From: Fidelibacterota bacterium
GTDB taxonomy: Bacteria > Fidelibacterota > Marinisomatia > Marinisomatales > TCS56
Assembly: GCA_043822705.1 (NCBI GenBank)
Contig: JBDRBK010000016.1
Coordinates: forward strand, 1-18,840
Direction: 5' to 3'
DNA length: 18,840 nucleotides
Below, piece by piece: positions 4,989 to 18,840 of this stretch (the stretch's first letter is position 1; the number at the start of each line of letters is the position of its first letter). The notes beneath the pieces are model-generated. The model did not search any database. It was not told where the DNA came from and was given only the letters and a program-made list of their open reading frames with translations. The translations under genes and the position numbers were made by a program.

Positions 4989-7187
4989 TTATCCAACGCT
5001 GATAATTTTTTCGCCCTGTGCTACCACCGTACCGATCCGCCAGGCCTGACCGCCGCCGTCGGTAATTCGCTCTAATAATACATCCTTTTTATCATCGGCA
5101 ACGGCAATCAACAATCCGCCGGATGTCTGGGCGTCGTTGAGCAGCAATTGCCGAACCTCGGAAATATTCCCTACGTATTCGACGAACGGGTCGGTGTAAT
5201 TACGGTTGTCGCGGGTACCGCCGGGCACAATGCCGGCAGCGGCCAGATCAAAGGCACCAGGCAGGATCGGAACGGCGGAGCCGTCGATTTCCGCCCCGAC
5301 GCCCGAGCCGCGCAGCATTTCCAGCAAATGCCCCAGCAGTCCGAAGCCGGTTATATCGGTACAGGCGCGGACGCCCACGGCCTGCATGGCCTCGGCGGCG
5401 GATTTATTCAAAGCGGACATCGTTTTGGTGAGTATTTCGGCCTGGTCCGGTTCCAGCAGGCCGCGTTTCAGGGCGGTGGACAGAATCCCGGTGCCGATCG
5501 GCTTGGTCAGGATCAGGGCATCACCCGGCCGCGCGCCGACGTTGGCGATGATCCGGTCGGGATGGATGATGCCGGTGACGGCCAGACCGAATTTTGGTTC
5601 GGTGTCATCCACGGTGTGGCCGCCGATGATGGCGATGCCGGCCTCGGCCGCCTTGTCCTGGGCGCCGCGCAAAATCGCCTCCAGTACCGACAGCGGCAGC
5701 CGGTTGCTGGGAAAACCGACGATATTCAGAGCGAACAGCGCCCGGCCGCCCATGGCGTAAATATCGCTGAGTGAATTGGCGGCGGCGATGGTGCCGAACT
5801 GGTAGGGATCGTCGACGATCGGCGTGAAAAAATCCACGGTCTGAACGATGGCGGTGTTGTCATCGATGCGATAGACGGCCGCATCGTCGGCGGTGTCGGT
5901 CCCCACCAGGATATTGGCGTCATTCGGAACGGCCAGTTTTCGCAGTACTTCCTCCAAAAGTTGCGGCCGTAGTTTGCAGGCGCAACCGAGGCCATGGGTG
6001 AATTGGGTCAGTCTGATTTCTTCCGGTTTGCCATGATCGATGGCTATTTGATCGACTGGCAGGAGTCGTTTGACGACGTGCGAAATTTCGCCAATGGCCC
6101 GGTCGATCTCGTCGCTGGTGGTGAAGCGACCTACCGAAAAGCGGATCGTACCCATGGCGTATTCCAGCGGTATCGCCAGTGCTTCCAGGACGGTGGAAAC
6201 ATCCACCCGGTCGGCGTGGCAGGCGGCGCCGGCCGAGGCTGCCACTGCTTCCAGTTCCGACAGGATCGTATTGGCTTCCAGTCGCGGAAAACTGACGCTG
6301 GCGGTATTGGGCAGCCGCCGTTCCGGATGACCGTTAATACGAATTTTTGGGAATTCTTTATTTAACCCCGCTTCCAGCCGGTCACGCATTCTGGTCAGGT
6401 GCGCCGTCGATTTTTTCAGGTTTTCTCCGGCCAGCTCGCAGGCCTTGCCCAGCCCGACAATCTCGATCACGTTTTCAGTCCCGGCGCGGCGATTCATTTC
6501 ATGATCGGCGCCGTGGATTTGTTTGCTCAGTTTTACGCCTGCTTTTACATAGAGAGCGCCGACGCCTTTCGGGGCGTAAACCTTATGACCGGCCAGCGAA
6601 AGCAGATCGACACCCAGTTCGGTTACCGTGACCGGAATTTTGCCGACGGATTGGGCGCAATCGCTGTGCAGCAGGACTCCGTGGCGATGGGCGATTGCGG
6701 CTATCTCGGCAATCGGTTCGATGGTACCGATCTCGTTGTTGGCGTGCATGATTGATATCAGAATGGTCTGTGGGGTAATTGCCTCTTCCACCTGCCGTGG
6801 ATCGATCAAGCCGAATTCGTCGACGGGCAGGCAGGTGATTTTGAATCCCTTGGTAGCCAGGTGAGCACAGACTGCGCTCACGGCCGGGTGCTCGATAGCG
6901 GAGGTAATAATATGATTGCCCCGGTCGCGGTAGGCTTCTGCCACGCCCTTGATGGCGTAATTATTGGCTTCCGAACCGCCGCTGGTGAAAATTACCTCGG
7001 AAGGCTCACAGTTCAACAGAGCAGCTACCTGGCGCCGGGCGGAAGCGACGGCTTTGCGGGCGGTGATTCCAAACAAATGGCTGCTGGAAGGATTGCCGAA
7101 ATGTTCGCTGATATAGGGCTGTAGTGCTTCGGCCACCCGCGGGTCGATGGGAGTAGTGGCGTTGTAATCAAGATAAATTGGTTTCAT
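4989..7187 (-). CDS. selD: fused NifS-like cysteine desulfurase/selenocysteine lyase (N-terminal) and selenide,water dikinase SelD (C-terminal)
   Basis: N-terminal ~375 aa: IYLDYNATTP, FGNPSS, IFTSGGSEANN, IEHPAV, MHANNEIG, PLP lysine AGHKVYAPKG, RAGTEN and catalytic SAGAACH. C-terminal ~345 aa: LTQFTHGLGCACKL, DDAAVY, QTVDFFTPIVDDP, ANSLSDIYAMGG, GGHT, LTKPIGTG, TDITGFGLLGHL and DAQTSGGLL. One uninterrupted 732-aa frame. Confidence 0.96.
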   Translation of the reverse strand: MKPIYLDYNATTPIDPRVAEALQPYISEHFGNPSSSHLFGITARKAVASARRQVAALLNCEPSEVIFTSGGSEANNYAIKGVAEAYRDRGNHIITSAIEHPAVSAVCAHLATKGFKITCLPVDEFGLIDPRQVEEAITPQTILISIMHANNEIGTIEPIAEIAAIAHRHGVLLHSDCAQSVGKIPVTVTELGVDLLSLAGHKVYAPKGVGALYVKAGVKLSKQIHGADHEMNRRAGTENVIEIVGLGKACELAGENLKKSTAHLTRMRDRLEAGLNKEFPKIRINGHPERRLPNTASVSFPRLEANTILSELEAVAASAGAACHADRVDVSTVLEALAIPLEYAMGTIRFSVGRFTTSDEIDRAIGEISHVVKRLLPVDQIAIDHGKPEEIRLTQFTHGLGCACKLRPQLLEEVLRKLAVPNDANILVGTDTADDAAVYRIDDNTAIVQTVDFFTPIVDDPYQFGTIAAANSLSDIYAMGGRALFALNIVGFPSNRLPLSVLEAILRGAQDKAAEAGIAIIGGHTVDDTEPKFGLAVTGIIHPDRIIANVGARPGDALILTKPIGTGILSTALKRGLLEPDQAEILTKTMSALNKSAAEAMQAVGVRACTDITGFGLLGHLLEMLRGSGVGAEIDGSAVPILPGAFDLAAAGIVPGGTRDNRNYTDPFVEYVGNISEVRQLLLNDAQTSGGLLIAVADDKKDVLLERITDGGGQAWRIGTVVAQGEKIISVG

Positions 7188-7320: not shown

Positions 7321-8388
7321 TTGGCGCGGCCAATAAAATTCAACCAACTGCCCGATCAGCGTTTCGACGAACGTGATACACTATTCGCCCGCATGAACCG
7401 TTCGGCGGGAACGGAACCGTATAACGATTATTACCAGCGGCGACCGGAATTGCAGGATATCGACGACCGCCTGCGCTCGATGCCGGCGCTGCTCGATCCC
7501 GAGGGACTATATTACGATCAGGAAATAATGACCCGGACCGGACAGTATTTCGCTGATATCGATAAAATTGAAGTTGACCATGAATTTGTCTGTGACTGGT
7601 CCGTCAAACTGACTGCGGCACGGGATAAATCAACTTTAATCAAAAAATTGACCCGGCAGTTAGGTGCCGTTGCCGTTGGTTTTTGCGAACTGGACCAGGA
7701 ATTTATTTATACGCAAAAGGGAAGATTTGATCATGATTATGGTCGGAATATAGAATTGGACCATCCGCGGATGATTGTATTTCTGGTGGAAATGGATTAC
7801 CAGCGGATGCAGCGGGCGCCCAAAGCTGACACTTTCCTGGAGTCGGCCCGCCAGTACTACCGGGCGGCGGTAATTTCCCGGACGGTGGCGGCAATTCTGG
7901 AGCAATCCGGTTATCCAGCCAAGGCCCATTATGATGCTCATTATGATTTGATTCTGCCGCCGCTGGCGATCAAGGCCGGACTGGGCGAACTGGGCCGCAA
8001 CAATATTCTGATTGCCGACAAATACGGCAGCCGGGTACGCATCGGAGCGGTCACGACCGCTTTGCCGTTGTGCCCGGACCACCCGGTTACACTGGGCGCA
8101 AGGCACTTCTGTGAAATTTGTAGAAAATGTGTCCGCCGTTGTCCCCCCAAAGCGCTGGCATTGGGTGAAAAGGAAACCGTTCGGGGTGTTGACAAATGGC
8201 CGACCAAAGTTGAGAAGTGCTACACTTACTGGCGCCGGGTGGGCACCGATTGCGGACTGTGCATGGCGGTTTGCCCGTTTTCGCACCGGAATAGCTGGTT
8301 GCATAATTTGGTACGGCTTTTTATCAGGCATTTTCCGATCCTGCACCGTCCGGCGCGTTGGCTGGATGATCTGATTTACGGGCGCTGA
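7321..8388 (+). CDS. reductive dehalogenase / epoxyqueuosine reductase superfamily protein with two 4Fe-4S clusters (putatively cobalamin-dependent)
   Basis: AGLGELGRNNILI..KYGSRVRIGAVTT, CX2CX2CX3CP (CEICRKCVRRCP) and CX10CX2CX3CP (CYTYWRRVGTDCGLCMAVCP), plus LGAVAVG. TTG start; an in-frame TAA at 7312-7314 prevents extension upstream. Confidence 0.88.
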   Translation: MARPIKFNQLPDQRFDERDTLFARMNRSAGTEPYNDYYQRRPELQDIDDRLRSMPALLDPEGLYYDQEIMTRTGQYFADIDKIEVDHEFVCDWSVKLTAARDKSTLIKKLTRQLGAVAVGFCELDQEFIYTQKGRFDHDYGRNIELDHPRMIVFLVEMDYQRMQRAPKADTFLESARQYYRAAVISRTVAAILEQSGYPAKAHYDAHYDLILPPLAIKAGLGELGRNNILIADKYGSRVRIGAVTTALPLCPDHPVTLGARHFCEICRKCVRRCPPKALALGEKETVRGVDKWPTKVEKCYTYWRRVGTDCGLCMAVCPFSHRNSWLHNLVRLFIRHFPILHRPARWLDDLIYGR

Positions 8389-8451
8389 TTTTTATTTTGT
8401 CATAGAGTAATGCAATTCCGATTTTTCTAATTGCTTACCGTCCTTTGTACA

Positions 8452-8482
8452 TTGACATCGTTGGATAATCTCACTAACTTTG
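8452..8482 (+). promoter_or_regulatory. sigma70-type promoter for the downstream operon
   Basis: Perfect -35 TTGACA (8452-8457), 17-nt spacer and -10 TAACTT (8475-8480), which continues as TAACTTTG. Confidence 0.7.
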
Positions 8483-8551
8483 TTGCCCTTTCCCGTATCT
8501 GGCATGCCTATCCAGAATCGGAAGGGAAGGCTGAATTTCACGAATGCTAGA

Positions 8552-10657
8552 ATGCTGAAGACGACCACTCAATATATACTGATTTTTTCTTGCTTCATTG
8601 CACTGGGGCAAGCTCAGTTCGCGGATGATGAGTATGATAAATACACCACCGTCGGGCAATTGGGCATGGTTATTACCAATTATGGTATACTGGGGAACGG
8701 TTATAATAAAATCAATGGGGAGATTATACCTTCCTGCCTATATCGTCAGCACACGGAAATTCTCCGGGAACAGGTCGAACATTTTTCCTACGCCGGACTC
8801 TGGGTCGGCGGCAAGGTCAATCAGGACCGGCGAGTCAGTACCGCCATCGTGGACGGTGCCTTCGAGTCCGGGGAGGCCGGGTTTGAGTTTTTCGCCGCCT
8901 CTCCGATCACGAACCGGTCATCGCTGCAGGATGCACGCTATTTTTCCACCGAGGCGGTGTCGCATCAGGACATGCTGATGGATTTTCAGGATTTCGGCAA
9001 AGATATAACCGGACATGTTCCTATGGGAATAGGCGTTCATCTGGAAAGTTATGCCTGGAACTTTGCCTTTGCCGATGCCTTCGTGATTCTGGATTATACC
9101 ATCACCAATATGTCCGCCGATTCGATCCACGATGTTTACGCCGGTCTGTGGATCGATGCCTCGATAGGTAATATGAATTATACCAGCGAATATGAACCGG
9201 GCGGCGGCTTCGACTGGTACGATAATCTGGATGGTTTCGATGAATCCGAAGATGATGCCGGTTTTCCTCGCGACATAGCCTTCCAGTACGATGCCGACGG
9301 TGATGATGGCTGGGCTGAATCATATATCGGGATAACATTGTTAGGCAGTTCCACGCCTACCCGCTACGTTGACTCCTTTTACCATCAGTGGACTTGGAAT
9401 AATGCTGCAAATACTGATTATCCGCAGTACAACATGCCGTTGAACGATATCCAGCGTTATGCCGTCATGACAAAAAGTGTAGCTAAGGGTAGTGATTCAA
9501 ATATATACACCGTATTGGGTTATCCTAGTATGCCCAGGAGTTGGCTGTTCCAGTTGTCGGCGGGACCCTTGGGCAGTCGGCCGGCCGATGTTGACTCACT
9601 GGGCTGGGTATTACCACCGGGAGAATCCTGCAAAGCCGTATTTGCCGTAGTGGCCGCCCGCTGGAATGGTTCTGGCCTGGATGGCCTGGACGACGCCAAC
9701 CGCCGCAAGAATCTATACGTCAGCGCTGACTGGGCTCAGAAGGCCTACGACGGCGAAGATATAAACCGTAATAATCAACTGGACGATGACGAAGATTTGA
9801 ATCAGAATGGCATTCTGGACCGTTACATTTTGCCCGAACCACCACCCAGCCCGGCTATGACCGTCGTCGTCGGGGATCAGATCGCCACCGTGTACTGGTC
9901 CGATAACGCCGAAAGTTTTATCGACCCGGTCAGCCAGGAAATCGATTTCGAAGGTTACCGGGTTTATGGCGCCCGCAAGACACTGGTCGAATATCCCCAG
10001 GAATTCACCCTGTTGGGCGAATACGATGTTTATAATCCCGATGACCAGAACATCGGCTACAATACCGGATTGGATGCCGTCCGGATCACCAATGCCGCCG
10101 GCGAACCCGATTCGGTTGCTATCGACGGTGTTTATTATCATTACAAATTTGAAAACCGGGGCGTGAAAAACGGCTGGATGAATTATTATTCGGTAACGGC
10201 CTACGACCGCGGCGACCCGGAGGCCAATGTGGCTAGCCTGGAAAGTTCAAAATATGCCAACCGGGTCTATGTTATGCCCGGTTCCGTCCCCGATACCAGC
10301 GGCTGGCGGGGACAGCCCAGCGTCTACCCCAACCCCTATCGCGGGCAGGCGAACTGGGACGGCTACGGCAGCCGGGACCGGATGATCTGGTTCCAGAATC
10401 TACCGGCCAAGGCCGAGATTCGAATATTTACACTGGCTGGAGATCTGGTGGATATAATTCAGCATGGCAGCGACTATATCGGCCAGGATGTACGGAACAT
10501 CGATCATAATAAAAATCCGCTGTTAAGCGGTGGTGAACACGCCTGGGATCTGATCAGCAGTTACGACCAGGCGGTGGCATCGGGACTCTATTTATTTACC
10601 GTCGAAGACCTCGCTTCAAACGAAGTCAAAGAGGGTAAATTCTTAGTCATTAAATAA
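8552..10657 (+). CDS. secreted protein with putative Ca-binding loops, an FN3-like domain and a T9SS-like C-terminal sorting domain
   Basis: Signal peptide from ATG 8552 (MLKTTTQYILIFSCFIALGQA); the TTG at 8480 lies inside the -10 box. It has EDINRNNQLDDDEDLNQNGILD loops, an FN3-like segment PEPPPSP...VYWSD...DFEGYRVY...YYSVTAYD, and a C-terminal VYPNPY...IRIFTLAGDLV...WDL...VASGLYLF...GKFLVIK. Confidence 0.88.
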   Translation: MLKTTTQYILIFSCFIALGQAQFADDEYDKYTTVGQLGMVITNYGILGNGYNKINGEIIPSCLYRQHTEILREQVEHFSYAGLWVGGKVNQDRRVSTAIVDGAFESGEAGFEFFAASPITNRSSLQDARYFSTEAVSHQDMLMDFQDFGKDITGHVPMGIGVHLESYAWNFAFADAFVILDYTITNMSADSIHDVYAGLWIDASIGNMNYTSEYEPGGGFDWYDNLDGFDESEDDAGFPRDIAFQYDADGDDGWAESYIGITLLGSSTPTRYVDSFYHQWTWNNAANTDYPQYNMPLNDIQRYAVMTKSVAKGSDSNIYTVLGYPSMPRSWLFQLSAGPLGSRPADVDSLGWVLPPGESCKAVFAVVAARWNGSGLDGLDDANRRKNLYVSADWAQKAYDGEDINRNNQLDDDEDLNQNGILDRYILPEPPPSPAMTVVVGDQIATVYWSDNAESFIDPVSQEIDFEGYRVYGARKTLVEYPQEFTLLGEYDVYNPDDQNIGYNTGLDAVRITNAAGEPDSVAIDGVYYHYKFENRGVKNGWMNYYSVTAYDRGDPEANVASLESSKYANRVYVMPGSVPDTSGWRGQPSVYPNPYRGQANWDGYGSRDRMIWFQNLPAKAEIRIFTLAGDLVDIIQHGSDYIGQDVRNIDHNKNPLLSGGEHAWDLISSYDQAVASGLYLFTVEDLASNEVKEGKFLVIK

Positions 10658-10672
10658 CAAGAGGAGCAAGGT

Positions 10673-13600
10673 ATGAAAATTAAACTGTTAACAGTTCTGC
10701 TGTTGCTGGTCTCGGTATCGTTGGCGGATGTCGTCACGATCGCCGAGGCTCGGGCCGCAGTTGGCGATACCGTCACCGTTGAAGGTATTGTCACGACGCC
10801 GAGCTGGTCCCCCGGGTACACCAGCTACCAGATACAGGACGCGACCGGCGGTCTGAACCTGTTTTATTACAGTAAATATGTCGCGCTTTCGATCGGCGAC
10901 CTGGTCAACGTGACCGGTAAAATATTATTGTACAACGGTCTGACGGAAGTGGAAGCATTGCACGATTCCCTGGTCAAGGTGATCAGTACCGGCAATGATG
11001 CGCCGATCTCCCAGCCACTGACGCTGTCAGCGTTGTTGAACGATCCCGAAACATTTGAGTCGGAACTGGTTGTCATCGAGAATGTATCGATTACCAGCGG
11101 CACCTGGCCGGCCTCCGGCAGCAGCGCCACCCTGAAAGTATCCGATGACGGCGGCCGGACCGTGGTCGACCTGCGGATCGACAACGATACCGACATCGAT
11201 GGCGCCGCGCAACCCACCGGCGCTTTCGTCCTGACCGGTGTTTTGAGTCAATACGATGGTTCGGCTCCCTATGATGAAGGTTACCAGATAATGCCCCGTT
11301 CGTACGCCGATTTCGGTGCTCCCTTCGAAGATGTGGTCACCTTCGCCGAGGCGCGGGCTGATTCCGGTAATACCGTAACCGTGCGTGGTTTTATCACGAC
11401 ACCGAGCTTTTCTTCCTCCAGTAATGATTTCGGCTTTCAGGATGCCACCGGCGGTTTGGATTTGTACGCCAGCGGCTCCTCAGTCGGGTTATTCGGCGTG
11501 GAATATGGCGATTTCGTCCAGGCCACCGGCAAGATCGGCGATTACAACGGTAAACGCGAAATCATGCCGACAGATACACTTGATGTTACAATCCTCTATC
11601 GTGGCACAGCCGTTCCGGCGCCGATCGAGCTGACCCTGCGGGAATTGCTGACCGATCCGGAGACCTATGAAGGTATGCTGGTCCAGGTAGTGAATGTTAC
11701 CTACACCGGCACCTGGCCGTTGCTGGGTACTGATGCCAATTTGACGATCACCGATCCCAGCGATACTAGCATGACGATGCGGATCGATAAGGACCATGAA
11801 GTGGACGGCACCGCCGCCCCCGTGGGCGCCTTCAATCTGATCGGCTGGCTGCAGCAATATGATTCTTCTTCACCATATACTTCCGGGTATCAGCTTTCAC
11901 CGCGGTTTCCGTCTGATATCGTGACTTTCGAGAACCAGGCCCCGGTAATCGTCGATGTGTCGATCGAGCCGACGCCGGTTTATGATGGTGATGCCGTGAC
12001 CGTGACCGCCGAGATTACCGATGATGGTACCTTCACCGTTTCCCTGACCTACAATGTCGGTGCCGGCGACGTGGTGCTGGCCATGACCCACACCACAGGC
12101 GATCTTTACACCGCCGAAATTCCCGGTCAGGACGAAGGCACGCTGGTCACCTATTCCGTGGCCGCCGATGACGGTGCCCTGGTTACTGACTCCGGTGATT
12201 TGACCTACCTGGTGCTGGCTTCCGCCGGAACGGTAACGCCGATTTACGATATCCAGTATTCGGCTACCGGCACATCGCCGCTTAATGGGACGGTCGTTAC
12301 CATCAGCGGTATTGTCACCGCCGAATTCTGGGGCAGCTACAAGAACCGCTACCTGTATGTGCAGGATGCGGCCAGCGCCTGGAGTGGTATCTACTGCTTT
12401 GAATATGGCGGCTGGAACAATTTCAATTTCAATTCCGCCTCGGGGCTGGTCAATACCGTTGCCGAAGGTGATAGCATCGCCATGACCGGTACGGTGACAG
12501 AATATACTACCGGAAACAGCACCGTTACAGAGTTGACCGATGTTACTGCCGTCACCATTTACAGCAGCGGTCATACGATGGAATCGACTTTGGTAACTCC
12601 CGGTCAGGTTAATACCGGCGGGACCGAGCAGGAAGCCTACGAAGGTGTACTGGTCAAGATCGCCGATGTGACCGTCGCCCGCGAAAAGAACAGCTATGGC
12701 GAATGGCTGGTCACCGATGGAACCGACACCTTGATGGTCGATGACATTTGGTCCTATTACTACTGGCCCAAGGTCGGCGATGAAATTGATGAAATTGTCG
12801 GTGTAATGGATTTTGCCTACTCGGAGGCCAAATTGCAGCCGCGCCTGGCCCGCGATGTGGTCGAAAAGGGTGTCTGCCGGATTCAACGTATCCAGCAGGT
12901 GCTGTACAGTGATCTGCTCAAGACCGGCCGCCTCGGCGCCGATGGTCTGATCGATCATGTGTCCGATATTTCCTACATGAATTGGATTCCTAATGTAGAC
13001 TCGACCTTCGTCACCATCGAAGGTATCGTTACGATGCCCACCGAACTGGGTTATGCCGGCGCCGGCATCAAGGTAATCTATGAAGATGTTCATGGCGGAC
13101 CCTGGAGCGGTATCCTGTCCTACAGTCCAGACTCAACCGGTATTCCGATTTTGTGGGAAGGCGATACGGTAAGTGCCTACGGTTACATTTCCGAATACCA
13201 GACCGACCACGGTAACATGACTGAATTCTTCGGCTCCGATGTCCTTGATGTTATCGGTTGGGGCGAAGGTGTGCATGGCGTTGGTATTCCACCGGCTGCA
13301 CCGGTGGCCACCGGTGACCTGCGCTGGCCCGAGACTGCCGAACAATGGGGCAATGTGATGGTCAAGCTCAGCGATCTGACCGTGACCAAAGTCAACCCCG
13401 CCGGATCCAATCTGAACAGCGGCATGTTCGCCGTGTCTGACGGCAGCGGCGAAATCTGGATTGACCATGATTCCTGGGTGATCTTCGACTGGTGGGAAAT
13501 CACCGGTCCGCCGGCTGTCGGCGCCGCGATCGATTCGATCATCGGCTGGGTTTACCATCATTTCGACACCTACAGCGACACCGGTGTTACCGTTTATAAG

Positions 13601-13948
13601 GTGGTACCGATATACGTCGAGGACATTTACTTCCCGGTCGTGGGTGTCGCGGAAAATGCACCATTGCCGAAACAGTATGCCCTGAATCAGAACTATCCCA
13701 ACCCGTTCAACCCGACAACGGCGATTCAGTTCGAGCTGGCTGATGCGCAGCGGGTCAAGATGATCGTTTACGATGTACTCGGTCGTCAGGTCCGCACGCT
13801 GGTCAGCAGCGATATGCCGGCCGGAACGTTTACGGTCGTATGGGATGGCAATAACAACCACGGACAAATGGTCAGTACCGGCGTCTATTTTGTACGCCTG
13901 GTTGCCGGTGACTTTGTCTCCGTGAAAAAGATGACGTTACTTCGTTAG
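10673..13948 (+). CDS. large secreted multi-OB-fold protein (four YhcR/ExeM-like modules plus an Ig-like domain) with a T9SS type A / FlgD-Ig C-terminal domain
   Basis: Strong RBS GAGGAG at 10661-10666 and a signal peptide. Repeated modules follow the pattern VT(V/I)xG(I/F)(V/I)T...(Q/E)D...GD.V..TG...Y...TE...E.(Y/F)EG.LV...PR. The C-terminus is YALNQNYPNPFNPTT.I...IVYDVLGRQVRTLV...VVWDG...VSTGVYFVRL...KKMTLLR. Confidence 0.9.
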   Translation: MKIKLLTVLLLLVSVSLADVVTIAEARAAVGDTVTVEGIVTTPSWSPGYTSYQIQDATGGLNLFYYSKYVALSIGDLVNVTGKILLYNGLTEVEALHDSLVKVISTGNDAPISQPLTLSALLNDPETFESELVVIENVSITSGTWPASGSSATLKVSDDGGRTVVDLRIDNDTDIDGAAQPTGAFVLTGVLSQYDGSAPYDEGYQIMPRSYADFGAPFEDVVTFAEARADSGNTVTVRGFITTPSFSSSSNDFGFQDATGGLDLYASGSSVGLFGVEYGDFVQATGKIGDYNGKREIMPTDTLDVTILYRGTAVPAPIELTLRELLTDPETYEGMLVQVVNVTYTGTWPLLGTDANLTITDPSDTSMTMRIDKDHEVDGTAAPVGAFNLIGWLQQYDSSSPYTSGYQLSPRFPSDIVTFENQAPVIVDVSIEPTPVYDGDAVTVTAEITDDGTFTVSLTYNVGAGDVVLAMTHTTGDLYTAEIPGQDEGTLVTYSVAADDGALVTDSGDLTYLVLASAGTVTPIYDIQYSATGTSPLNGTVVTISGIVTAEFWGSYKNRYLYVQDAASAWSGIYCFEYGGWNNFNFNSASGLVNTVAEGDSIAMTGTVTEYTTGNSTVTELTDVTAVTIYSSGHTMESTLVTPGQVNTGGTEQEAYEGVLVKIADVTVAREKNSYGEWLVTDGTDTLMVDDIWSYYYWPKVGDEIDEIVGVMDFAYSEAKLQPRLARDVVEKGVCRIQRIQQVLYSDLLKTGRLGADGLIDHVSDISYMNWIPNVDSTFVTIEGIVTMPTELGYAGAGIKVIYEDVHGGPWSGILSYSPDSTGIPILWEGDTVSAYGYISEYQTDHGNMTEFFGSDVLDVIGWGEGVHGVGIPPAAPVATGDLRWPETAEQWGNVMVKLSDLTVTKVNPAGSNLNSGMFAVSDGSGEIWIDHDSWVIFDWWEITGPPAVGAAIDSIIGWVYHHFDTYSDTGVTVYKVVPIYVEDIYFPVVGVAENAPLPKQYALNQNYPNPFNPTTAIQFELADAQRVKMIVYDVLGRQVRTLVSSDMPAGTFTVVWDGNNNHGQMVSTGVYFVRLVAGDFVSVKKMTLLR
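10727..11932 (+). repeat. intragenic tandem duplication of a ~201-aa module
   Basis: DVVTIAEARA..GDTVTVEGIVTTPS (10727) and DVVTFAEARA..GNTVTVRGFITTPS (11330) start 603 nt apart. Both copies share QDATGGL, TGKI..YNG, LL.DPET.E, GTWP, RID.D..(I/V)DG.A.P.GAF.L.G.L.QYD.S.PY..GYQ..PR. Confidence 0.9.
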
Positions 13949-13961
13949 TATTTGCAGATCA

Positions 13962-14002
13962 GGCGCGGGCGTTCGCCCTATTGACGAGCGCCCGCGCCCT
14001 TT
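13962..14002 (+). terminator. GC-rich stem-loop with a short U-tract (leaky terminator or mRNA-stabilising hairpin)
   Basis: GGCGCGGGCGTTCG (13962-13975) pairs with CGAGCGCCCGCGCC (13985-13998): 14 bp with one G-U pair and a 9-nt loop, followed by CTTTAATT. Confidence 0.7.
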
Positions 14003-14024
14003 AATTAAGGAATTGGTTTCCCGA

Positions 14025-15596
14025 ATGACGATTGACTTCAAAAAGATTGTCTTGCCGGCACTGGCACTGCTGGTGCTATCCTGCTCGCTGTGGGAGTACG
14101 ACGATCCGTCCGCTGCGATCGGCAACCTGTCCCCGGAAACCTACCTGACCCTGGTGGCCGCCGATACCATCTACCGGGTGCTGGATCAAATCATTGAGGT
14201 CACCGATACGGTCAGCGGTATTGTGAGTTATGACTCCACCTGGACCTACAGCATCGGCGTTCCGCCGGCCGACACGGCGGCTTTTATAGGCGATACGCTG
14301 GGCAATGCCTTCACAACTATCACCACCAGCCAGCAGTTGTTGAACTGGTGGGGTGAAGATCAGGACGGCAATGTGGTCGCCTATGACGTCCGCTGGAATA
14401 CCGACAGCAGTTGGACCCGCACTGCCGCGGAAGACAGTCTGTTTAATGTACCAATCCGGACTGTAATGGATGTGTTCCAGTTCTTTGTCCGGGCTGTGGA
14501 TGATTCCGGCGCCGTCGACCTCACACCGGCCATGTTAACTTTTCCCATTAAAAATTCTTTTCCTTCGATCGAGTTCCGTTATGGCAGCAATCCGCAAAAA
14601 GCCGATCACGGTACCGTGTCGTACACTTTTTCCACCCGGACTTTTGTCTGGGACCTGTTCGATCTGGATGGTATCGAAACAATTACCAATGTTTATTACG
14701 CCCTCGACGATACCTGCGATACCTGCTGGATCGCGCTGGATGCCCAAGCGCAGTCCAGCCTCACGCTCACCGGCCTCGAACCGGGGACGCATAAATTCTT
14801 CCTCAAGGCTCGCGATATCGCCGGTGCCGAGAGTCCGGTTATTCGATTCCCTGACAGCGATGATGAATACCAATGCCAGAGATGGGAAGTGAAACCGGTC
14901 GTCGGCGACGTGCTGCTGGTGGATGACTTCCCCTTTAACATCAGTAATGTGACCCGGAACTGGTACAAAAATATATTGGATACACTAGTAGGTACAGATG
15001 GTTATTCGGTCTGGGAAATCGGCGGAGCGTTGCCCTACAGTTCCACTGATATTCTGGCAACGCTGGATTTTTTCGATCATGTGATCTGGTTTTCCGGTGT
15101 TCAAGGGGTAGAAATGTATCTGGATGCCAGCTCCAGCATCTATAGTTACGCCATGGGTGGAGGTAACTTTTTCATTAGCGCCCCCGAACTGAAGGATTCC
15201 ACGTTTATCTGGTTTCCACTAAAGTCGCAGGCTTTAATTAATCCTTCGGGGCGCTGGTTTCCGGGCGCCCGGATCGACTCGCAGGTCGATAACCTGCCCG
15301 ACCTGGTTACGTCTTATACGATTGGTGTCCGGGTCCGGAGTTTTGTCCCGGATGCGACCCAGTTCGCCAGCATAAAAGATTTATATCATCTGTCGCTACC
15401 GCGCAGCAGCGATGAATGGACCGGCACGCCCAATGTCTGCAGCATCGGTCAATTCCAGGCTAGCTTCAACCAGTTGTCCGGTAAGGTGGTGTTGCTGTCG
15501 CTGCCACTGCATAATGGCAGCCAGCCGTTGCTGGAAGGCGAGGGGTCGGCCAGTCAGCTATTGGAATATCTGTTATTCAACGAGTTCGGGCGATGA
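14025..15596 (+). CDS. surface lipoprotein with two Ig/FN3-like repeats and a C-terminal alpha/beta domain
   Basis: ATG 14025 follows AAGGA. Lipoprotein signal MTIDFKKIVLPALALLVLS-C. Two related units: W.GEDQDG.V...FFVRAVDDSGA and WDLFDLDG.....FFLKARDIAGA. A VLLVDD strand opens the last domain. Confidence 0.85.
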   Translation: MTIDFKKIVLPALALLVLSCSLWEYDDPSAAIGNLSPETYLTLVAADTIYRVLDQIIEVTDTVSGIVSYDSTWTYSIGVPPADTAAFIGDTLGNAFTTITTSQQLLNWWGEDQDGNVVAYDVRWNTDSSWTRTAAEDSLFNVPIRTVMDVFQFFVRAVDDSGAVDLTPAMLTFPIKNSFPSIEFRYGSNPQKADHGTVSYTFSTRTFVWDLFDLDGIETITNVYYALDDTCDTCWIALDAQAQSSLTLTGLEPGTHKFFLKARDIAGAESPVIRFPDSDDEYQCQRWEVKPVVGDVLLVDDFPFNISNVTRNWYKNILDTLVGTDGYSVWEIGGALPYSSTDILATLDFFDHVIWFSGVQGVEMYLDASSSIYSYAMGGGNFFISAPELKDSTFIWFPLKSQALINPSGRWFPGARIDSQVDNLPDLVTSYTIGVRVRSFVPDATQFASIKDLYHLSLPRSSDEWTGTPNVCSIGQFQASFNQLSGKVVLLSLPLHNGSQPLLEGEGSASQLLEYLLFNEFGR

Positions 15597-18379
15597 TCCG
15601 CAAATTTTTATTGATCCTGTTGATTCCCTTGAGCCTGCTTGCTCAGAACAAGACTGTCGGCAGCCTGGCCGGGCGGATAATCGACAGCAAGACCGGTGAG
15701 GCGCTGATTGGCGTCAATGTTGTCGTCAAGGGCACCTATTTCGGGGCCGCCTCCGATTTGGACGGCTATTATACTGTTCCCAATATCGAGCCCGGCAGTT
15801 ATGATGTGGAAGCTTCCATTATCGGCTATAAAATCACTCTGCGAACCGGTATCACCGTCAATCCCGGTCAGCGTACCACCCTGGATTTTAATCTGGAGGT
15901 GACCGTCCTGGCGCTGGGTGAAGAAATCGTAGTGCTGGGAAAAAAGCCGCTGTTTGATGTCGACGCGACCTCTTCCACGTCCCTGATCCGTAGTGACGAT
16001 ATCGCCGGCAAGGTCGTCAGCAGCGTAGAGGATATCCTGTCCGAGCAGATCGGCGTGACCACCCAGGACAATGAGATTCACATCCGGGGCGGCCGTGTTG
16101 ATGAAAGTCTGTTTGTGGTAGATGGTTTCTCGATCAAGGATCCACTTTCCGGTTATTCCGGCAACCTGTTCGTCAACGCCGAGGCGATCGAGGAACTGGA
16201 GATCGTCACCGGCGGCTACAACGCCGAATACGGTCAGGCCATGTCGGGTGTCGTCAACATCAAGTTGAAGGGTGGGCGGGATCATTACGAGGGCGCATTC
16301 AAGTACGCCAGCGATAATTTCGGGCTCAATCACGATCAAATCCGTCATTACGCCACCGACCGGATCGAATTCAATCTGGGCGGGCCGTCGCTGATACTGG
16401 AATCACTGCCCCGGCGATTCGGGCTGGACCTGCCCGGCCGTTTCTCGTTTTTCATCAATGGTTACGGCAAAATTTTTGACAGCAACCTGCCGGTCGCCCA
16501 AAAACTGTATCCCCATCGGAACTGGCAACCGCTCCCGGGAATGACCGAAGCCCAAGCCGATAATCTGATGCAAGCACTGGCGCCGCGGGAAAACAACGAC
16601 TGGCACGTTCTGTACAAAATGACCTGGGATTTAGACGCCAAGAAAAAATTAAGTGCCTCGTATGATGTTTCCATGAATATCAACCAGGGCTATTTTATGT
16701 CGCGGGCTTTTTCGTCGACCTACTATCCCTACCGCTATCAGGAGATACTGGACAACTACAACACGATTACCCGCGAATCCCGGCTGTTGAATCTAAGCTG
16801 GGTCCACACGCTGAACACCCAGTCCTTTTATGAGTGGACCCTGGGACGCTTCATCACCATGGAACACAGCGCCGTCCAGGACAAGCACTGGTCCGAATAC
16901 CCGGAACGACTCGATCTGGATCCGATCAATTATGTTTTGCTGGACGAAGAAGGAAATACCAGGATCACCTACGGCAACGAATTCTACGATACCGGTTTTT
17001 CTTCGGAATGGTATGATATTTTCAGCGACAACTGGCGCTTCGACTTCGACTGGACCTACCAGACCAAAAAACGCCATAAAATCAAGACGGGTATCGAGAG
17101 TAGTCTGACCGAAATGCAGGTGCTTGATATCGATGAACCCTGGACCGGCACATCCGGATTCGGCGCCAATTACGACAAGTACCTGGCCCGCACCATGTAC
17201 GGTGCCTTGTATCTGCAGGACCGCATAGTTTTCGAGGGCATGACCGTGAATCTGGGACTGCGCTATGATTACTGGTTCCCCGGCAAGTACGTCGAGGATG
17301 CGGTTTTTGACACCAATGCAGTCATCATAACCGACGTTGCCCGTGAGAAATTCATTGACGAAACTTTTAAATTCATGGGATATCGCGGCAAAGGCCGGAT
17401 CAGCCCCCGCTTTGGTATCTCGCATCCGGTGACCAATAACGATGTTCTGTATTTCTATTACGGCCATTTTTCCCAGCTGCCCACATTCCAATATGTGTAT
17501 GCCAAACTCGACAACAATTCACAGTCTACCTACCAAGTCTTCGGTAATCCCAATCTGAGTCCCAAGACCACCGTGCAGTATGAAATCGGCATCAAGCACC
17601 GCTTCAGCGAGGACCAGGTACTTGAATTGAAAGCTTACTGGAAGGACATGTTCGATTACGAGACATCGCAGACAATCACGCCTTCTAATCCCAAGTACGC
17701 CCATCTCAGCTTCCTGATGTATTTCAACGCCGATTACGCCCGAGCCCGAGGGATCGAATTCATTCTCAAGAGCCGCGTGTTCCGTAACTGGTATGCCGAC
17801 CTCAACTTCAACTATTCGATCGTTACCGGCAAGAGTTCATCACCCCAGGATAACCTGCTGGTGGCGGCTGGTGAAATCAGCGAAAAATCCCTGGGAGAAA
17901 ATTTCATGAGCTGGGACCGGCCGGTTCAGTTCTTCTCCAATCTTTCTTACAACCATCCCAAAAACTGGGGCATTTCCTTCCGGTTCGATTATTCCACCGG
18001 ACGCCGCTATACCGCTTCGATACCGGGTACCAAGGATTATCCCAGCGGTCTGGTTGAGATCGACGGTATTCTGTACTATATCGGCACCACTGACGATGAC
18101 CGGCCCTACTATTCAATCAGCAATGTGGCTGAAAAAACCGTCGATGTCAAAATATTCAAACTACTGGATTTCGGTAAATTCCGGCTGCGAACCTTTATCG
18201 AGATCGAAAACCTTTTCGATCAGCGGGTACCGCGCCGGATCAATTCCTACACCGGTGAAGGTTATGATCCCGGCGAGATATATTCCTATAGTATGCTCGA
18301 TCAACCCAGCCCCAATCTGGATCCGTCGCGGGTACGTCAGCCGCGGGCGGCCACGATTGGCCTGCAGATAATATTCTGA
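15593..18379 (+). CDS. TonB-dependent receptor with an N-terminal carboxypeptidase-regulatory-like domain
   Basis: Signal peptide; GRIIDSKTGEALIGVNVVVKGT..GAASDLDGYY; plug IHIRGGR...FVVDG...IEELEIVTGGYNAEYGQAMSGVVNI; barrel motifs LYLQD, NLGLRYD, ISPRFG, GNPNLSP and YEIG; terminal Phe. ATGA overlap with the lipoprotein gene. Confidence 0.95.
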   Translation: MIRKFLLILLIPLSLLAQNKTVGSLAGRIIDSKTGEALIGVNVVVKGTYFGAASDLDGYYTVPNIEPGSYDVEASIIGYKITLRTGITVNPGQRTTLDFNLEVTVLALGEEIVVLGKKPLFDVDATSSTSLIRSDDIAGKVVSSVEDILSEQIGVTTQDNEIHIRGGRVDESLFVVDGFSIKDPLSGYSGNLFVNAEAIEELEIVTGGYNAEYGQAMSGVVNIKLKGGRDHYEGAFKYASDNFGLNHDQIRHYATDRIEFNLGGPSLILESLPRRFGLDLPGRFSFFINGYGKIFDSNLPVAQKLYPHRNWQPLPGMTEAQADNLMQALAPRENNDWHVLYKMTWDLDAKKKLSASYDVSMNINQGYFMSRAFSSTYYPYRYQEILDNYNTITRESRLLNLSWVHTLNTQSFYEWTLGRFITMEHSAVQDKHWSEYPERLDLDPINYVLLDEEGNTRITYGNEFYDTGFSSEWYDIFSDNWRFDFDWTYQTKKRHKIKTGIESSLTEMQVLDIDEPWTGTSGFGANYDKYLARTMYGALYLQDRIVFEGMTVNLGLRYDYWFPGKYVEDAVFDTNAVIITDVAREKFIDETFKFMGYRGKGRISPRFGISHPVTNNDVLYFYYGHFSQLPTFQYVYAKLDNNSQSTYQVFGNPNLSPKTTVQYEIGIKHRFSEDQVLELKAYWKDMFDYETSQTITPSNPKYAHLSFLMYFNADYARARGIEFILKSRVFRNWYADLNFNYSIVTGKSSSPQDNLLVAAGEISEKSLGENFMSWDRPVQFFSNLSYNHPKNWGISFRFDYSTGRRYTASIPGTKDYPSGLVEIDGILYYIGTTDDDRPYYSISNVAEKTVDVKIFKLLDFGKFRLRTFIEIENLFDQRVPRRINSYTGEGYDPGEIYSYSMLDQPSPNLDPSRVRQPRAATIGLQIIF

Positions 18380-18840
18380 TGAAACGCCTGACAATCATTA
18401 TATCCCTGGCGAGTATTCTGTCGGTTGCGGCGGGACAGAATTTTTTCCCGATTCTCGGCGGTCAGCGGGTCGGCACTTCGATTTTCACTTTCCTGAAAAT
18501 TGGTACCAGCGCCCGGGCGGCCGGTATGAGTGAGGCGGTGGTGGCCCTGAATCAGGATGCGGCCTCACTGTACTACAATCCCGGGGCGGTGGCTCAGTTC
18601 ACGCGACCGGAATTTTCCGCCTCGCGGATTCAGTGGCCGGCTGATGTCAATTATGACTATTTCAGCTATGCCCGGCACATTATCCGCCGCCATTATCTTG
18701 GTTTAAGCGCCGGTATTCTGCACATGCAGCCGATGGAAGAAACCACCGAGTATCTGCCCAACGGCACCGGCAATTATTTCGTCTTCCAGGATCGGTTTAT
18801 CGGTCTGACCTACGGCGCCCGGATGACCGACCGCTTCAGC
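18379..18840 (+). CDS. PorV/PorQ (UPF0164/FadL-like) outer-membrane barrel protein, 5' part only
   Basis: Not in the ORF track. TGATG overlap with the receptor stop. Manual translation gives MKRLTIIISLASILSVAAGQNFFPILGGQRVGTSIFTFLKIGTSARAAGMSEAVVALNQDAASLYYNPGAVA..., matching the FLxIxxxARxxGMxxA...D....YNPA signature. The frame is open to the window end. Confidence 0.88.
   Translation, partial: MKRLTIIISLASILSVAAGQNFFPILGGQRVGTSIFTFLKIGTSARAAGMSEAVVALNQDAASLYYNPGAVAQFTRPEFSASRIQWPADVNYDYFSYARHIIRRHYLGLSAGILHMQPMEETTEYLPNGTGNYFVFQDRFIGLTYGARMTDRFS

Follow-up and report, generated by a model that had tools for sequence, protein, structure and literature searches.

Polysaccharide utilization loci (PULs) built around a SusC/SusD pair combine a TonB-dependent receptor with a dedicated surface partner and accessory lipoproteins, and they occur in many copies per genome beside substrate-specific enzymes (PMC13543919). 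In Bacteroides thetaiotaomicron, the ddbABCDEF locus encodes three nucleases, the receptor DdbC and the DUF5689 protein DdbD, for which an interface with DdbC was predicted and 4jbm given as the structure match (PMC12478041); the locus is related to the transformation genes RA0C_RS04915 and RA0C_RS04920 of Riemerella anatipestifer (PMC12478041, PMC8459023), and the term "type IX secretion" is absent from the listing of the ddb preprint. For type IX secretion system (T9SS) cargo whose C-terminal domain (CTD) is of type B, the gene of the cognate PorP/SprF shuttle usually lies directly downstream, and the shuttle can anchor the cargo (PMC12618676, PMC9143113). Here, we describe a six-gene operon, g1 to g6, that shares features with each of these systems and begins in contig JBDRBK010000016.1 of a Fidelibacterota genome (GCA_043822705.1; 3.3 Mb, 93% complete), this 18,840-nucleotide (nt) contig, C16, being the whole stretch of DNA analyzed and called the window below.

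With ddbABCDEF the operon shares a TonB-dependent receptor, a DUF5689/OB-fold protein resembling HIN-domain DNA binders, the lack of SusD and an association with secreted nucleases, and the DUF5689 protein, g2, lies in the receptor's locus as it does there; B. thetaiotaomicron was itself positive for DUF5689 in our profile search. It differs in that g2 is T9SS cargo and does not adjoin the receptor gene, in that no nuclease is found within the six genes, and in the presence of a supersandwich partner with a variant CTD, a PorV paralog of its own and two lipoproteins, none of which is described for ddb. The likeness to type B cargo lies in a non-type-A tail paired one-to-one with a barrel gene that is usually directly downstream, which suggests dedicated shuttling and noncovalent anchoring, but the barrel here belongs to the PorV/PorQ family, the tail gave no type B profile match, and the pair goes with a TonB receptor rather than with adhesins, PorE or gliding. 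Unlike the SusC/SusD systems, finally, the receptor is not SusC by profile, and in place of a TPR lipoprotein held by its lipid, its partner is a T9SS cargo protein of all-beta structure that a barrel is predicted to hold. The operon would work like ddbABCDEF combined with the type B CTD/PorP pairing and, by its gene content and profile scores, is a member of neither. It is a real and apparently unpublished variant of the receptor-based utilization loci, and we judge it marginally probable that it captures environmental DNA or RNA fragments at the cell surface and imports them as nutrients, with a triad of receptor, variant-tail partner and PorV paralog in the role of SusC/SusD.

The six-gene operon and its conservation

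The features of the operon are as follows (aa, amino acids).

8452..8482, + strand: promoter-like element seen in the sequence, TTGACA (8452-8457), 17 nt, TAACTT(TG) (8475-8482)
8552..10657, + strand: g1, 701 aa, ATG start; signal peptide, ~400-aa beta-supersandwich, Fn3-like domain and variant T9SS CTD; predicted surface partner of the receptor
10673..13948, + strand: g2, 1091 aa; signal peptide, repeated OB-fold/DUF5689 modules and type A T9SS CTD; predicted nucleic-acid-binding surface protein
13962..13998, + strand: G+C-rich hairpin immediately 3' of the g2 stop, -31.2 kcal/mol, z -3.2
14025..15596, + strand: g3, predicted lipoprotein, lipobox VLSC, ATG start, weak Fn3 match, not SusD
15593..18379, + strand: g4, 928-aa TonB-dependent receptor of a non-SusC subfamily, with CarboxypepD and Plug domains
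18379..18840, + strand, interrupted by the contig end and completed to C200:687: g5, PorV/PorQ-family barrel, ~335 aa
C200:690-2153, outside the window: g6, 487-aa NHL-repeat lipoprotein (NHL 52.8 bits, lipobox FTGC), last gene of the operon

The preliminary description, made from the window alone, had placed five codirectional genes at these positions, and five open reading frames (ORFs) were indeed found there in one direction, overlapping by ATGA at g3/g4 and by TGATG at g4/g5. Its expectation that the operon continues past the window was borne out by contig C200, whose first 141 nt are exactly the last 141 nt of the window, a sequence found at no other junction; C200 completes g5 and adds g6. 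Since C200 continues with an opposite-strand gene, followed by two sensor kinases (read from the sequences), the six-gene operon ends with g6. Profile scans of g1 to g6 gave no match to SusD or to a glycoside hydrolase, in keeping with what had been said of the window, and no carbohydrate-active enzyme was found in these genes or among the C200 genes that follow. An ordinary PUL with its SusD just past the window was thereby rejected. A longer g1 ORF starting with TTG at 8480 was likewise discarded, as it overlaps the promoter-like element.

We searched for g1 in 151 genomes of the phylum at a threshold of E ≤ 1e-20 and found it in 108, a few of the matches being weak or partial and possibly paralogs. 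Loci were then compiled from 40 g1 matches (on long contigs and spread over families) and from 58 among the receptor-profile matches listed, and removal of 11 duplicates left 87 nonredundant loci. The full order g1-g2-g3-g4-g5-g6 was present in 57 of these; 24 others were sub-stretches cut by contig or fetch ends, three were permuted with g1-g2 after g6, and three lacked one gene among the ORFs called, where a longer antisense ORF had probably taken its place. Such an arrangement is far beyond chance. The record titles of the loci include KSB1, Calditrichota and unclassified bacteria, so that the synteny survey proposed earlier yielded an order kept across several phyla. The genome is one of the Marinimicrobia: labeled homologues of g1 with 62 to 68% identity are assigned to Marinimicrobia, Fidelibacterota or the Fibrobacteres-Chlorobi-Bacteroidetes (FCB) group and distant clusters to Ignavibacteria, Calditrichota and Bacteroidota, the g1 profile matching 632 clusters at E ≤ 1e-30 and 2878 at 1e-10 (50%-identity representatives). 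In trees of selected rows, the g5 orthologues formed a single cross-phylum clade apart from the paralogs of this genome (support 99/98-99), and those of g4 likewise (quick tree, SH-aLRT 100), both trees recovering the paralog group C41/C82b/C82c. The operon is a near-single-copy unit, kept at 40 to 78% identity.

Two variations in layout were observed: the order g3-g4-g5-g6-g1-g2 in L025, L026, L058 and L103, flanked by nucleoside hydrolase, XdhC, EEP or metallophosphoesterase genes, and an alkaline phosphatase gene between g1 and g2 in L107 (L107:4065-5246).

The single promoter given in the preliminary description stood in part. The element is present, but it fell below the threshold of a sigma-70 consensus scan, in which it was not listed, and among four aligned relatives it was kept in one (the nearest, L014) and not evident in the other three; furthermore, the hairpin divides the operon after g2. 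A hairpin with z ≤ -3 followed g2 in 47 of the 56 complete loci, conserved in position and variable in sequence, and the corresponding counts were 0, 1, 1 and 1 of 56 after g1, g3, g4 and g5 and 8 of 54 after g6, the controls after g1 and g3 to g5 being imperfect because they are mostly coding sequence. The hairpin is likely an attenuator or an mRNA stabilizer in favor of g1 and g2, and it may set the two secreted proteins above the membrane parts in level. For positions 8400-18390 of the window, no RNA holder was listed, which says nothing about expression.

Receptor, variant-tail partner and PorV paralog

In this genome 18 PorV-like ORFs were counted, two of them being the parts of the split g5, and the g4 subfamily of receptors has 11 members, all of which have a variant-CTD partner. 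Each of the ten receptors other than g4 is followed by a protein of 600 to 1340 aa with a g1-like tail, and nine of the ten cassettes then carry a PorV paralog, the tenth running into a contig end. A variant-CTD ORF lay directly upstream of a PorV-like gene in 9 of 14 cases versus 3 of 76 for type A ORFs, 10 of the 14 having been used to build the variant-CTD profile; the five exceptions are g1, the truncated partner on C107 and, on C75 and C90, three ORFs that are unlinked. It is g1 that recurs as the receptor's partner, rather than the lipoprotein, and receptor, variant-tail partner and PorV paralog very probably form an uptake unit. The other cassettes are placed beside peptidoglycan enzymes (C69), GH38 and sugar ABC genes (C70), GH13 and GH57 (C30) and an M12 peptidase (C41), and among 61 of their neighbors scanned, receptors and barrels left out, no EEP or nucleotidase gene was seen. 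SusD (PF07980) was not found in this 93% complete genome, the B. thetaiotaomicron control being positive, and it was found in 11 of 61 genomes sampled. Utilization loci are found computationally through SusC/SusD pairs; thus, this genome would score none despite its 11 receptor-partner cassettes.

Our literature search, which had most subscription papers and supplements outside its reach, returned no published description of such a unit, and the accessible portions of PMC5317091, PMC3534657, PMC11205867 and bioRxiv 2025.01.31.636011 do not describe it. In the second of these, Mros0761-0759 of a starch operon of Melioribacter roseus are called SusC, SusD and SusE (PMC3534657); these genes might be such a triad.

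Several cassettes deserve separate mention. The C69 cassette has a counterpart on a plasmid of Rhodothermus marinus DSM 4252 (NC_013502.1:8638-21117, genes RMAR_RS14120/14115/14110; 44 to 50% identity) that adjoins a peptidoglycan-recognition protein gene, and at C69:19446-44474 the cassette stands amid peptidoglycan-degrading genes, making it a candidate muropeptide importer. In the C70:80689-83649 cassette the partner is apparently encoded in two parts, an N-domain gene (264 aa) and an Fn3-plus-tail gene (703 aa). For the three variant-tail proteins at C75:3193-9990 and C90:11659-14031, neither a PorV-like gene nor a receptor gene of g4 type is on the same strand of the contig, and they are possible orphans sharing a barrel. 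A g3 paralog stands before another receptor cassette, on C82.

The tail of g1 gave no TIGR04183 match at E ≤ 0.1 and no CHU_C or type B match, and only a weak match to the PorZ tail was seen. On a profile built from ten paralog tails, with g1 left out, g1 scored 85 bits versus 18 on a g2-derived type A profile, while g2 scored 29 and 138 bits, respectively; the g2 tail is a type A CTD by TIGR04183 as well (34 bits, cut-off 23). By profile, the g1 tail is a distinct variant T9SS CTD, neither type A nor type B. Of the two CTD proteins named in the preliminary description, then, g2 is an ordinary one and g1 carries a tail of another class. Its further proposal, an operon-specific PorV for the exported proteins, most likely holds only for g1, with its variant tail; g2, whose tail is ordinary type A, would follow the canonical PorV/PorU route.

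No Pfam family matched g1. Its structure model (predicted local distance difference test [pLDDT], 81) places a beta-supersandwich at mature residues 1-405, followed by an Fn3-like domain and then the tail. The supersandwich resembles the noncatalytic N-terminal domain of GH116, GH15 and GH94 enzymes (Z 17-20), the best fold match being 7w2t (Z 19.6, root mean square deviation 3.7, 281 aligned residues, 11% identity). The matches cover residues 1-406, and the model contains four short helices only, strands beyond residue 405 and no catalytic alpha/alpha barrel; an intact glycosidase of GH15, GH94 or GH116 type was therefore rejected. A PDB sequence search with the g1 profile found nothing, and the ESM Atlas gave unnamed clusters only for the g1 N-domain.

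The receptor g4 has CarboxypepD and Plug domains, and the barrel family was matched in 20 of 34 orthologues. The SusC/RagA model TIGR04056 reached 60 bits against a cut-off of 368, over the N-terminal part only, and no PDB sequence matched. For g5, the part on C200 scored 104.9 bits and the full L014 orthologue 179.2 bits on the PorV/PorQ family model NF033709 (cut-off 90); both were listed as PorV_fam, with no PorP/SprF family. On the canonical PorV equivalog NF033710 (cut-off 250), the L014 orthologue scored 43.7, while the best canonical candidate of this genome, C70:13735, scored 190.4 and branches apart; on this score and the tree position, g5 as the housekeeping PorV was rejected. The ESM Atlas placed g3 in unnamed clusters, a DUF4960/fn3 match being a weak lead below 0.9.

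The T9SS core search suggested in the preliminary description gave a mixed outcome. SprA and PorU exceeded their cut-offs in this genome, and SprA was found in 149 of the 151 genomes, but GldM and GldN had no match here and GldN none in 61 genomes, in searches where no positive control gave a signal and GldL was not included. GldK gave two weak partial matches in this genome. PorV is also present, and this may be a T9SS without the known motor, subject to the missing positive control for GldM/GldN.

OB-fold protein g2 and the gene neighborhood

Besides OB matches, g2 scored 60.9 bits on DUF5689 (cut-off 28.6), a cut-off reached by one of six g2 orthologues scanned, and it partially matches the noncatalytic region of ExeM/NucH. 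The conserved core (residues ~505 to 990; model pLDDT 87) reads as tandem OB folds, up to about ten in g2 as estimated from repeats, and single domains of it match the OB domains of the AspRS anticodon-binding region, RPA and MCM at Z 11-12. In Foldseek, the complex of p204 HINab with double-stranded DNA ranked first for the core (E 1e-9, TM 0.25), and 4jbm was also listed. No nuclease fold was among the fold matches listed for g1 and the g2 core, which does not exclude one, and a PDB sequence search with g2 returned a FlgD-like tail and weak Ig matches only. The N-terminal part differs among orthologues, with LTD, cytochrome-c-like or extra OB modules. In the core alignment, Y457-H458 are invariant, H459 nearly so, and many acidic residues are invariant, a possible metal or ligand site.

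We scanned 75 flanking proteins against Pfam (71 of 144 cluster representatives and 4 others). The recurrent families were EEP nucleases with an LTD and a type A tail, other EEPs, 5'-nucleotidases and metallophosphoesterases and, further, nucleoside hydrolase, XdhC, alkaline phosphatase, Na/Pi cotransporter and GDPD; GH97 was the sole glycoside hydrolase, and SusD did not occur. A gene for a nuclease, nucleotidase, phosphoesterase, alkaline phosphatase or XdhC, the last a purine-catabolism gene, lay within two genes of the operon in 29 of the 87 loci. The EEP gene is upstream in the same orientation as the operon or downstream in the opposite orientation, and in one unclassified genome it is upstream and opposite; the flanking EEP proteins show conserved motifs that we take to be those of the DNase I-like family.

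In this genome C171 encodes a nucleotidase-EEP fusion and an EEP lipoprotein; G119 has this pair immediately before g1, the genes downstream of the pair also being the same in both genomes. With g2's fold and the neighbor genes of relatives, the earlier guess of a nucleic acid substrate has gained support, and we regard it as fairly probable that nucleic acid is what this six-gene copy takes up. Both deoC and ComEC are present in the genome. In a Guaymas enrichment, Marinisomatota UBA2242 genomes were recovered from DNA-amended cultures and had many TonB receptors, tied mainly to polysaccharides (PMC8630151).

Across six families, at least 21 genomes have g1 on the strand of sprA and 10 to 22 kb downstream of it, by coordinates compared by hand among the SprA matches listed. 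In G119, the six-gene operon is inside a conserved sprA cluster. Here, contigs C178, C89 and C171 join via 141-nt overlaps, for which the simplest reading is that the operon left the sprA-linked cluster in this lineage. The joined cluster contains Ham1, sprA, an M28 peptidase, a lipoprotein, a protein with a PorZ-like tail and two PorV-like genes, then a deacetylase, asparaginase II, an LTD/OB cargo, a PorV-like gene, a helix-hairpin-helix (HhH)-domain protein, a FadL-like barrel, the nucleotidase-EEP and the EEP.

Mechanism and alternatives

We propose that g1 and g2 would cross the outer membrane via SprA and that g1 would stay attached through its variant tail to g5, a barrel of its own, in the manner of type B cargo on PorP/SprF, with the supersandwich reaching over the receptor g4 as a lid or a substrate-selecting partner. 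By way of the canonical PorV/PorU route, g2 would reach the surface, where its OB-fold array, presumably made in excess because of the hairpin, would gather nucleic acid. The nucleic acid would be cut by secreted EEP nucleases and nucleotidases, whose genes adjoin the operon in many relatives and lie on C171 here, and g4 would import the fragments, with the lipoproteins g3 and g6, like g1 and g2 predicted to be at the surface, as accessories.

Several observations weigh against this scheme. Of the 29 loci with a seeded enzyme, 21 owe it to one EEP nuclease family, mostly in related genomes, and none of these enzymes was present in the other 58 of the 87; moreover, the seed families were picked after the Pfam results had been seen, which makes the count post hoc. 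No nuclease-type gene adjoins the operon in this genome, and the common EEP-LTD nuclease was not found in it. OB folds bind many kinds of ligand, and whole-model TM-scores of the g2 core to DNA binders are only ~0.25. The core is very acidic, with an isoelectric point of ~4.1 across all 31 aligned orthologues; therefore, binding would need cations or base stacking. The fold of g1 is like domains of carbohydrate enzymes and unlike nucleic acid binders, and g1 lies 7.7 kb away from g5 here rather than directly upstream. Among the motor genes that would power secretion, GldM and GldN were not found (without a positive control).

Some of these points would suit the same triad working on another substrate, such as a glycan, a peptide, another phosphate ester or polyphosphate, with the OB array as a calcium-stabilized scaffold or an adhesin. 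The GH-like supersandwich of g1 and the acidity of g2 fit this explanation, as do the LTD-containing CTD protein that also occurs in the amylase cassette on C30 and the general phosphate genes among the neighbors (Na/Pi cotransporter, GDPD and alkaline phosphatase), but the 75 flanking proteins held a single glycoside hydrolase against repeated EEP and nucleotidase families, and g2 shares DUF5689 and tandem OB folds with DdbD; we consider this explanation unlikely. Less probable still is that the operon performs the outer membrane step of DNA uptake in natural transformation and does not mainly feed the cell. Transformation in Riemerella requires RA0C_RS04915, RA0C_RS04920 (DUF5689) and an HhH protein (PMC8459023), and the sprA-linked cluster around the operon in G119 includes an HhH-domain protein. 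The adjacent secreted nucleases, nucleotidases and phosphatases suit degradation, however, and neither comEC nor dprA was among the 75 flanking proteins scanned, while the presence of ComEC in this genome, nominally in favor, says little because 10 of 14 control genomes were positive.

The proximity to sprA and the near-single-copy conservation of the operon would also agree with an accessory or biogenesis part of the lineage's T9SS, in which the receptor-like barrel would assist secretion or envelope upkeep and not import nutrients, and a TonB-dependent transporter needed for secretion is known from Myxococcus (PMC6434023). We hold this to be the least probable explanation. Given that SprA is present in 149 of 151 genomes and that 43 of the 151, among them all 7 of family f2, gave no g1 match, secretion does not need g1; the ten paralogous cassettes are mostly beside catabolic enzymes, and in G055, with sprA on a different contig, the nuclease still adjoins the operon.

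Nutrient import of nucleic acid by the triad is accordingly the reading that we carry further, together with a broader and more doubtful proposal: deep-branching FCB phyla, mostly without SusD, might rely on T9SS tails and shuttles of a third class, in which each receptor has a supersandwich lid on its own PorV paralog, and the six-gene copy would be an ancient cross-phylum harvester of nucleic acid. The triad would be a new marker for the nutrient niches of abundant uncultured marine phyla, and the cognate-shuttle principle of T9SS would extend from adhesins to nutrient uptake, in organisms whose genomes gave no match to the usual motor genes. If nucleic acid is imported, the operon is candidate machinery for the turnover of environmental DNA in seawater and sediments, and Marinimicrobia, KSB1 and Calditrichota would be consumers of dissolved marine DNA that have gone unnoticed.

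Directly upstream of the operon, the window encodes an Fe-S protein (7321-8388) that scored 140 bits on a reductive dehalogenase model with a cut-off of 160, and the same reductive dehalogenase-like gene is also upstream of the operon in L014. Before it, on the minus strand at 4989-7187, lies a 732-aa ORF resembling what we take to be a cysteine desulfurase fused to a selenophosphate synthetase.

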